57,551 nucleotides of DNA, from positions 1 through 57,551 of the forward strand of contig JACTTX010000006.1 in NCBI GenBank assembly GCA_015661005.1, written 5' to 3'. Made by a program: the position numbers and the translations under genes. Each line of letters starts with the position of its first letter. Within the stretch, counting starts at the first letter, position 1. The notes below the pieces were generated by a model that did not search any database, was not told where the DNA came from, and saw nothing but the letters and a program-made list of their open reading frames with translations. Shown here piece by piece: positions 52,072 to 52,144 of this stretch. The stretch is from Candidatus Magasanikiibacteriota bacterium (lineage in GTDB: Bacteria; Patescibacteriota; Patescibacteriia; Magasanikbacterales; JACTTX01).

Positions 52072-52144
52072 TGGACCCGGCGGGATTTGCACCAGCTTCG
52101 CCAGGTGTCGACGCTGGCATGCTGACTAATTGCACCACGGGCCC
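52072..52144 (-). tRNA. Atypical tRNA-like gene (G3:U70, A73, anticodon-position CGA, non-canonical D/T loops)
   Basis: It folds as a 73-nt cloverleaf: GGGCCCG-UG-GUGC-AAUUAGUCA-GCAU-G-CCAGC-GUCGACA-CCUGG-CGAA-GCUGG-UGCAAAU-CCCGC-CGGGUCC-A. The 31:39 pair is a C-C mismatch. Position 37 is C. The D loop has no GG. The T loop is UGC instead of UUC. No CCA is encoded. Confidence 0.5.

Follow-up and report, generated by a model that had tools for sequence, protein, structure and literature searches.

The question raised by contig JACTTX010000006.1 of a Candidatus Magasanikiibacteriota bacterium (assembly GCA_015661005.1), whose 57,551 nt we refer to as the window, is what a tRNA-shaped gene at positions 52072–52144 is for, since it combines the identity elements of alanyl-tRNA synthetase (AlaRS) with CGA, a triplet that would decode a serine codon. 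An earlier note, made from the letters alone, had proposed that it could encode an alanine-donor tRNA for a Fem/MurM-type or other aminoacyl-transfer reaction, less likely a recoding tRNA, or else a pseudogene. Our analysis suggests a different answer, namely that the gene is probably one copy of an RNA-only cassette of Patescibacteria, in which a predicted antisense-gated, alanine-chargeable tRNA mimic is preceded by its own antisense RNA. Across about 50 loci, compensatory changes preserve the complementarities that involve the anticodon arm, positions 4–9 and the 3' strand of the acceptor stem. This antisense partner was absent from the earlier note, and it alters the picture.

ARAGORN called a tRNA at 52071–52144 on the minus strand, one of four in the whole window, with anticodon cga and the label Ser(cga), and the Rfam tRNA model (RF00005) matched 52072–52144 on the same strand with E = 4.7e-6 in a local search and 36.4 bits, its gathering score being 29. 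Both calls confirm the 73-nt cloverleaf of the earlier note, which had not given the strand. Read on the minus strand, with G1 at 52144 and A73 at 52072, the tRNA-Ala-like RNA has the acceptor stem GGGCCCG/CGGGUCC containing G3:U70 (G3 at 52142, U70 at 52075), U8 and G9, a D stem GUGC/GCAU closing a D loop (AAUUAGUCA) without GG, a 3-nt variable region (GAA), and a T stem GCUGG/CCCGC with a mismatch between U51 (52094) and C63 (52082). The T loop, UGCAAAU (52085–52091), places a G at position 55 and accounts for the GUGC T arm. In the anticodon-like arm, a 5-bp stem GCCAG/CUGGC closes a 9-nt loop, CGUCGACAC (52105–52113), with the CGA triplet at 52108–52110. This description is equivalent to the C31-C39 mismatch and C37 in the numbering of the earlier note, and the arm departs from the 7-nt loop, U33 and purine 37 of an elongator tRNA. 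Thus, each of the structural peculiarities read from the letters alone is present on the minus strand.

The gene does not encode CCA, A73 being followed by C74 and then AAA, whereas CCA is encoded in all 43 canonical tRNAs of the host genome (870 kb, 97.9% complete). That genome has normal tRNA-Ser (CGA, UGA, GGA and GCU) and tRNA-Ala (UGC, GGC and CGC), and the long-arm tRNA-Ser(CGA) at 37836–37925 of the window, mentioned in the earlier note, is a real gene according to both ARAGORN and Rfam. The acceptor stem GGGCCCG/CGGGUCC, G3:U70 and A73 are identical to those of the host tRNA-Ala(UGC) and tRNA-Ala(CGC), and the cloverleaf shares with a canonical tRNA-Ala its 4-bp D, 5-bp anticodon and 5-bp T stems. 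It differs from a canonical tRNA-Ala in its 9-nt loop, a variable and non-alanine triplet, the 3-nt variable region and the missing CCA, in an elbow with A-G/G55-C56 instead of G18-G19/U55-C56, and in having a conserved leader complementary to its 3' strand together with a dedicated antisense RNA.

A paralogue was found in the same genome on contig C5 (384–458), 76% identical and ending in ACCA. It was recognised by neither ARAGORN nor the Rfam tRNA model, and gave a weak Rfam tmRNA match at the acceptor and T arm; loci L008 and L011 were likewise not called at the Rfam tRNA threshold. Scanning one genome per species for an exact pattern gave at least 120 stretches, and about 58 of those listed are the same kind of RNA. 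The hosts of the matches listed are nearly all metagenome-assembled genomes (MAGs) of Patescibacteria, the candidate phyla radiation (CPR), including Paceibacteria, Saccharibacteria, Yanofsky-, Uhr-, Magasanik- and Staskawicz-bacteria and others. Members of the family share G3:U70 and A73, lack GG in the D loop, have UGCAA in the T loop and a 9-nt anticodon-like loop, and carry a leader complementary to the 3' acceptor strand; most of them do not encode CCA. In an alignment of 58 loci (A1), the acceptor and T-arm columns of which were fixed by the search pattern, the cloverleaf was 95.2% paired, with double changes in all four D-stem and all five anticodon-stem pairs, and its covariation score was equalled in none of 500 shuffles. 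The earlier note had proposed looking for conservation and covariation in related genomes, and the outcome is a paralogue and about 60 homologues elsewhere, in which the pairs of the D and anticodon stems have changed in a compensatory way, indicating that the gene that ARAGORN labelled Ser(cga) is more than a chance cloverleaf.

A second search pattern was restricted to the loop and T arm and left the acceptor stem free. The acceptor stems recovered in this way included GGGCUCG/CGAGUCC, GGGUCCG/CGGAUCC, GGGCCUG/CAGGUCC and GGGCUUG/CGAGUCC. G3:U70 was retained in all nine intact loci, together with compensatory U:A pairs at 4:69, 5:68 or 6:67. A pair that stays constant while its neighbours change on both sides is evidence of selection on the AlaRS identity pair, and the alanine identity claimed from the window copy is therefore real and under selection.

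Alignment of the two host-genome loci revealed homology that starts at a promoter, continues over about 50 nt and a hairpin plus U tract, and extends into the tRNA-like gene. The same layout was found in almost all family loci: a sigma-70 promoter, an RNA of about 50 nt, an intrinsic terminator, in some loci a second promoter, the leader, and the tRNA-like RNA. In the window, a consensus scan placed this promoter (P1) on the minus strand as TTGACA-17-TATAGT, with the −35 box at 52269–52274, the −10 box at 52246–52251 and 11 of 12 consensus matches; the same promoter lies at the C5 paralogue, and a near-consensus promoter occupies this position in 46 of 49 homologous loci. The antisense leader or small RNA (sRNA) corresponds to 52190–52240 (−), with a start predicted about 7 nt past the −10 box, and comprises segment A, an inner hairpin and segment E. 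It is paralogous to C5:291–340 and has counterparts at the same position in 49 other loci, its roughly 50 nt being made up of 36 nt from segment A up to segment E and the 12 nt of segment E itself. A 13-codon frame (AUG...UAA) also lies in the window antisense part, at 52195–52236 (−); no convincing ribosome-binding site precedes it, and other loci do not share it.

Segment A (AACGCUGG, 52231–52238, minus strand) can pair with the first loop bases and the 5' strand of the anticodon stem (CCAGCGU), 8 of 10 positions forming Watson-Crick pairs, and segment E (GCUGGUUGUCCA, 52194–52205, minus strand) with loop bases 3–9 and the 3' strand of the same stem, with 8 Watson-Crick and 2 G-U pairs of 12. 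With these values, the 11/12 promoter and paralogy to the C5 cassette over its full length, the window cassette falls within the definition of the family. In most loci a further segment, C, inside the inner hairpin, is complementary to positions 4–9 of the tRNA-like RNA and beyond. Between the antisense part and the tRNA-like gene, a terminator-like hairpin, AAACCCG/CGGGUUU with a U tract (T1), was read from the sequence at 52162–52189 (−). Its C5 counterpart was called as a terminator, whereas the 12-nt loop of T1 kept it from being called on the minus strand. The second promoter, present before the tRNA-like gene in 30 of 49 loci, is weaker than the antisense promoter and has its −35 box inside the terminator loop. 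Apart from the weak tRNA match, the Rfam scan yielded no family for the upstream unit.

Across the family, cognate parts match each other better than mismatched ones. Segment E reached at least 10 of 12 Watson-Crick pairs at a fixed distance in 49 of 57 loci, as compared with 17 of 666 mismatched-pair controls, and with G-U pairs counted at least 11 of 12 positions paired in 45 of 49 cognate combinations but in only 5.4% of non-cognate ones. For segment A, at least 9 of 10 positions paired in 28 of 49 cognate pairs, compared with 9.5% of the non-cognate. Position 9 of the tRNA-like RNA followed its partner in the same manner (A:U 25, G:C 14, G:U 3, C:G 2 and U:A 1; n=49). The formal covariation count was performed on a 33-locus alignment of whole cassettes, in which two helices were testable: 86.6% of cells were paired, compared with 73.7±0.9% after shuffling and 28–42% with slid partners, and the score was equalled in 0 of 500 shuffles. 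Two-sided changes were present in 10 of the 12 segment-E pairs, the 'anticodon' columns included (UA 20, CG 7, AU 2, GC 2 in one; CG 23, UA 8 in the other). In agreement with this, cofolding gave a mean ΔΔG of −7.0 kcal/mol for cognate and −1.6 kcal/mol for non-cognate combinations.

Complementarity of this extent could also arise at the DNA level, as an inverted repeat such as a recombination or mobile-element site preserved by gene conversion, with no RNA function at all. As DNA, the upstream unit does repeat the 5' half of the tRNA-like gene in inverted orientation, imperfectly and with its segments permuted, and an integrase gene and an IS110-like open reading frame (ORF) lie within 4 kb. 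On the transcribed strand, however, the antisense helices contain 32 G-U against 17 A-C mismatches, and the leader helix described below 66 against 14, an excess that fits selection at the RNA level. Near-consensus promoters and terminators at fixed positions, a cloverleaf that itself covaries, segments that are permuted rather than a continuous palindrome, and the lack of a recombinase gene conserved beside the cassette also argue against a DNA repeat, and we consider this explanation extremely unlikely.

The same evidence bears on whether the RNA reads codons. The earlier note had ranked a recoding tRNA as less likely, and the triplet is not kept as a codon reader: across members it is UGA in 23, CGA, UGG and UAG in 6 each, UAC in 5, with others (UAA, UGU and UGC) besides, and it covaries with the upstream antisense segment. 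A triplet that varies and changes together with its antisense partner indicates that CGA is part of an RNA–RNA interface. On the evidence of these sequences, decoding is not what is being conserved in the family, and a loop apparently built for an RNA partner rather than for a fixed codon is unlikely to belong to an ordinary decoder. A working decoder would place alanine at UCG through CGA, at GUC through the register UC-GAC-A, or at a four- or five-base codon through the 9-nt loop. The combination of G3:U70 with a non-alanine triplet would suit such a role, as would the alternative register U/C-GAC-A, which has A at 37 and resembles the loop of the host tRNA-Val(GAC), and the normal 7-nt loop UUGAUAC of L071 and L077. 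Nevertheless, close homologues differ in the triplet, which changes in step with the antisense RNA; 54 of 58 members have a 9-nt loop, in which position 37 is a pyrimidine when numbered as in the earlier note; and canonical tRNA-Ser(CGA) and tRNA-Val(GAC) are both already present in the host genome. We therefore regard a decoding role as very unlikely.

A further argument of the earlier note concerned the elbow. It had stated that loss of GG and a GUGC T loop mark the non-proteinogenic (NP) tRNAs that staphylococci use for peptidoglycan bridges. The family does have A-G in the D loop and G55-C56 in place of G18-G19/U55-C56. TruB, the enzyme that makes pseudouridine 55, was not detected in the host genome (97.9% complete), as compared with its presence in 14 of 14 control genomes, and five canonical host tRNAs (Gly-UCC, Arg-UCU, Ala-GGC, Thr-CGU and Thr-UGU) carry C55. 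The missing TruB and the C55 tRNAs suggest that the elbow rule is relaxed in this lineage, which makes the argument from the elbow to a non-proteinogenic role a weak one here. Ordinary-looking tRNA-Ala genes with a UGCAA T loop also exist elsewhere, for example L028.

The third complementarity lies in the 5' leader. In most members G1 is directly preceded by GUGGAUCC, the complement of the 3' acceptor strand together with A73 and C74; the window has a degenerate form of it, ACGGACAC, at 52145–52152 (−). Over the 58 loci of A1 the helix between leader and 3' strand was 90.9% paired, and where the 3' strand has changed the leader has changed with it: C74 to G with G−8 to C (L117 and L171), A67 with U−1 (L174), and A69 with U−3 (L172). 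Complementarity between leader and 3' end as a general trait of host tRNA genes was also considered and rejected, since only the C5 tRNA-like gene and tRNA-Leu(CAA) have a 7-bp helix at p ≤ 0.03; the leader of tRNA-Thr(UGU) likewise forms 7 bp, with p = 0.15. Separately, a CTCACTC/TTCACTC motif recurs at most 14 nt before many canonical tRNA genes of the host.

Taken together, these three complementarities can be accommodated in a two-state RNA toggle. In the docked state, the antisense RNA would unzip the anticodon arm and capture the 5' acceptor strand at positions 4–9, and the leader would take the freed 3' strand; no cloverleaf would then form, and there would be no processing by RNase P, no CCA addition and no charging. 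In the free state, the cloverleaf would fold, the leader would be lost, CCA would be added and AlaRS would charge the RNA with alanine. AlaRS, the CCA-adding enzyme and the RNase P protein are all encoded in the host genome. The minimum-energy fold of the window read-through transcript is the docked state, and the fold of the C5 copy contains the helix between 5' leader and 3' acceptor strand. In L047 the copy of the target strand inside the antisense hairpin has U in place of C; the intermolecular duplex should therefore beat the intramolecular one, which fits strand displacement.

Several observations weigh against this reading, most of them directed at the window copy. No second promoter was detected in either host-genome copy, which leaves the window tRNA-like gene with no promoter of its own and suggests that the antisense part there probably works in cis, as a leader whose transcription continues across a weak hairpin, and not as a separate sRNA. 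Segment E forms 8 Watson-Crick pairs in the window and 11 in C5, the leader pairs at 5 of 8 positions compared with 7 of 8 in C5, and the match of segment C is poor (6/10); segment C is unrecognisable in the window because both host copies have a different inner hairpin. By hand count, neither host antisense part is clearly restricted to its own partner. With its U51-C63 mismatch, weak leader and segments, and no canonical terminator downstream, the window copy is below the family standard. At the level of the family, the invariance of the acceptor and T arm in A1 carries no weight, because the search pattern fixed those columns. RNase P RNA was not detected in the host genome with either bacterial model, although rnpA is present, and from this no conclusion was drawn. 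The direction of control may also differ from the one proposed: the antisense RNA may regulate the tRNA-like RNA, the tRNA-like RNA may act as a sponge for the sRNA, or both may form a complex.

Some of these weaknesses would be explained if the window copy were a decaying duplicate of a functional C5 cassette. Its U51-C63 mismatch is unique among the 58 members, its leader and segment E are both inferior to those of C5, it ends without CCA whereas C5 ends in ACCA, and a canonical terminator was not found after it. P1 is nevertheless intact at 11/12, the D and anticodon stems are fully paired, L115 has the identical loop, the family covariance model (R1) scores the copy at 84 bits, although it was part of the training set, and CCA is missing in most other members too. 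The pseudogene option of the earlier note can thus be rejected for the family; for the window copy alone we keep it as a real but minor possibility.

The distribution of the cassette is rare and patchy. R1 was applied to an even sample of 150 genomes from across the phylum, and its matches were inspected by eye because the model also scores ordinary tRNA-Ala at 50–58 bits. True members were found in 2 of 151 genomes, the host genome with its two copies and one other (G083), and the other high-scoring matches inspected were ordinary tRNAs, mostly tRNA-Ala. Within the same order, 1 of 40 genomes had the tRNA-like RNA. Several genomes carry two or more copies.

Such a distribution bears on the enzymatic role first proposed, in which a non-proteinogenic Ala-tRNA would feed a Fem/MurM-type transferase or another aminoacyl-tRNA-dependent enzyme and the antisense RNA would merely set its level. 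Consistent with this role, alanine identity is conserved while the loop shows no conserved codon-reading triplet, the host genome has a FemAB-family ORF (contig C11, 333 aa), and AlaRS and the CCA-adding enzyme are present. However, FemAB was found in 142 of the 151 sampled genomes, and since these enzymes are near-universal where the cassette is rare, they must work there without it. Clustering of the ORFs within 4 kb of the 58 loci revealed no conserved neighbour protein, the largest cluster being EF-G/EF-Tu at 6 loci, followed by H+-PPase at 4, and the search did not find the C-terminal domain of MprF. The specific link to Fem/MurM therefore finds no support, and we consider the role unlikely. 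Alanine tailing by RqcH/NFACT was tried as a further candidate and rejected for the host genome, which gave one below-cut-off match to NFACT_N and none to NFACT-R.

The staphylococcal NP tRNAs offer one comparison. The tRNA-Gly species NP1, NP2 and NEW of Staphylococcus are extra species that keep their synthetase identity and are thought to be excluded from translation, and they are defined by loss of G49-U65/G51-C63, which gives weak binding to EF-Tu (PMC12256121). In the present family, by contrast, G51:C63 is kept in 57 of 58 A1 members and the pair at 49:65 is G:C in most; the U51-C63 mismatch noted earlier is found only in the window copy, so that a T stem weakened in the staphylococcal manner does not appear to be a family trait. 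The anticodon loop of the NP tRNA-Gly species is a normal one of 7 nt with the cognate UCC, and their genes lie in tRNA/rRNA operons, whereas the tRNA-like RNA has a non-cognate, variable triplet and an antisense partner.

Rarity and patchiness across distant classes would instead suit an RNA-only toxin–antitoxin or abortive-infection module, in which a putative alanine-charged mimic would jam or corrupt translation once a short-lived antisense RNA was lost. Harm might come about by mis-decoding, by frameshifting through the 9-nt loop, or by titration of AlaRS or EF-Tu, and the antisense RNA, expressed at a higher level, would hold it in check. The frequent presence of at least two copies per genome, the lack of a fixed genomic context, an antisense promoter that is near-consensus in most loci combined with a weaker one for the tRNA-like RNA, and an extensive complementarity upheld by covariation all point this way. 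Against this, none of 9 pattern matches among the IMG/VR viral contigs is a member of the family, some loci stand in housekeeping surroundings such as downstream of tuf/fusA, the two host paralogues appear cross-reactive rather than private, and with a single promoter, as in the window, toxin and antitoxin would not be made independently. An addiction or defence module is thus possible, if rather improbable.

The type I toxin–antitoxin systems (hok/sok, fst/RNAII) and sRNA sponges with which such a module would be compared share with the cassette an adjacent antisense RNA from a strong promoter, a single target, a patchy and multi-copy occurrence, and co-evolution. In contrast to type I systems, the target here is a tRNA-shaped non-coding RNA and not the mRNA of a small membrane peptide, the two genes have the same orientation, and the complementarity is split into permuted segments. 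T-boxes offer a second likeness, in that an upstream RNA pairs with the anticodon loop and acceptor end of a tRNA-shaped RNA beside a terminator hairpin; no T-box match was obtained from Rfam even at E values up to 1. A T-box pairs 3–4 nt with a folded tRNA, whereas the cassette pairs 10–12 bp and invades the stem. The cassette also has no evident antiterminator fold, its downstream 'gene' is the tRNA-like RNA and not a synthetase, and its anti-acceptor element comes after the hairpin. The tRNA-like domain of tmRNA, including reduced forms without the coding part, resembles the mimic in alanine identity, tRNA shape and the absence of codon reading by an anticodon. It differs in that the mimic has full D and anticodon arms, a different T loop and no evident SmpB-type logic, and a normal tmRNA is encoded elsewhere in the host genome (contig C33:6431–6821).

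Two groups of relatives depart from the typical cassette. L024, L025, L059, L079, L080, L086, L091 and L097 have the same acceptor, T arm and loop motif and no D arm; in these, for which Rfam has no family, a long closing helix pairs A73 with the base preceding G1, and some of them occur in MAGs labelled as Gammaproteobacteria. Upstream of L024 and L059, part of the anticodon arm is repeated in the same orientation. In a subfamily formed by L016, L084, L095, L058 and L065, which has no upstream antisense unit, a 7-bp leader/trailer helix (GCCCCAG...CUGGGGC) closes the acceptor stem.

In the window, the cassette is adjoined by tRNA-Arg(UCU) at 52294–52370 (−), an ORF with an IS110-type transposase domain at 53055–54680 (+) and a tyrosine integrase gene at 55901–57019 (−), and the IS110 ORF and integrase beside a tRNA gene may mark the boundary of an island. 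On the other side, a 22-bp perfect inverted repeat or hairpin (51975–52041) lies between the tRNA-like gene and a 1050-aa ORF without Pfam match (48723–51875, minus strand); the motif TTGTAAAT occurs four times around this repeat (also at 51879–51899), and a promoter-like site (52042–52015, minus strand) lies inside it. Further away, the 23S rRNA gene (9939–14100, minus strand; 4162 nt) holds a group I intron (10936–11195, minus strand), the 5S gene (8442–8560, minus strand) is about 1.4 kb from it, and an Rfam scan found no 16S gene in the window. In the host genome, ARAGORN found no tRNA-Phe or tRNA-Asn and one CAU tRNA only, and did find tRNA-Ile(UAU).

Full-text literature searches found no description of such a cassette, nor of any tRNA-shaped RNA with a private, co-evolving antisense RNA able to unfold it; the regulatory mechanisms considered for comparison included synthetases, modification, nucleases, T-boxes and sponging by precursor spacers. 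For annotation, the ARAGORN label of a second tRNA-Ser(CGA) could be misread as extra decoding capacity or as codon reassignment in CPR bacteria. If the mimic is really charged and gated by RNA, the cassette would represent a new layer of control over the use of aminoacyl-tRNA in the smallest known bacteria or, alternatively, a new class of protein-free selfish or defence element.

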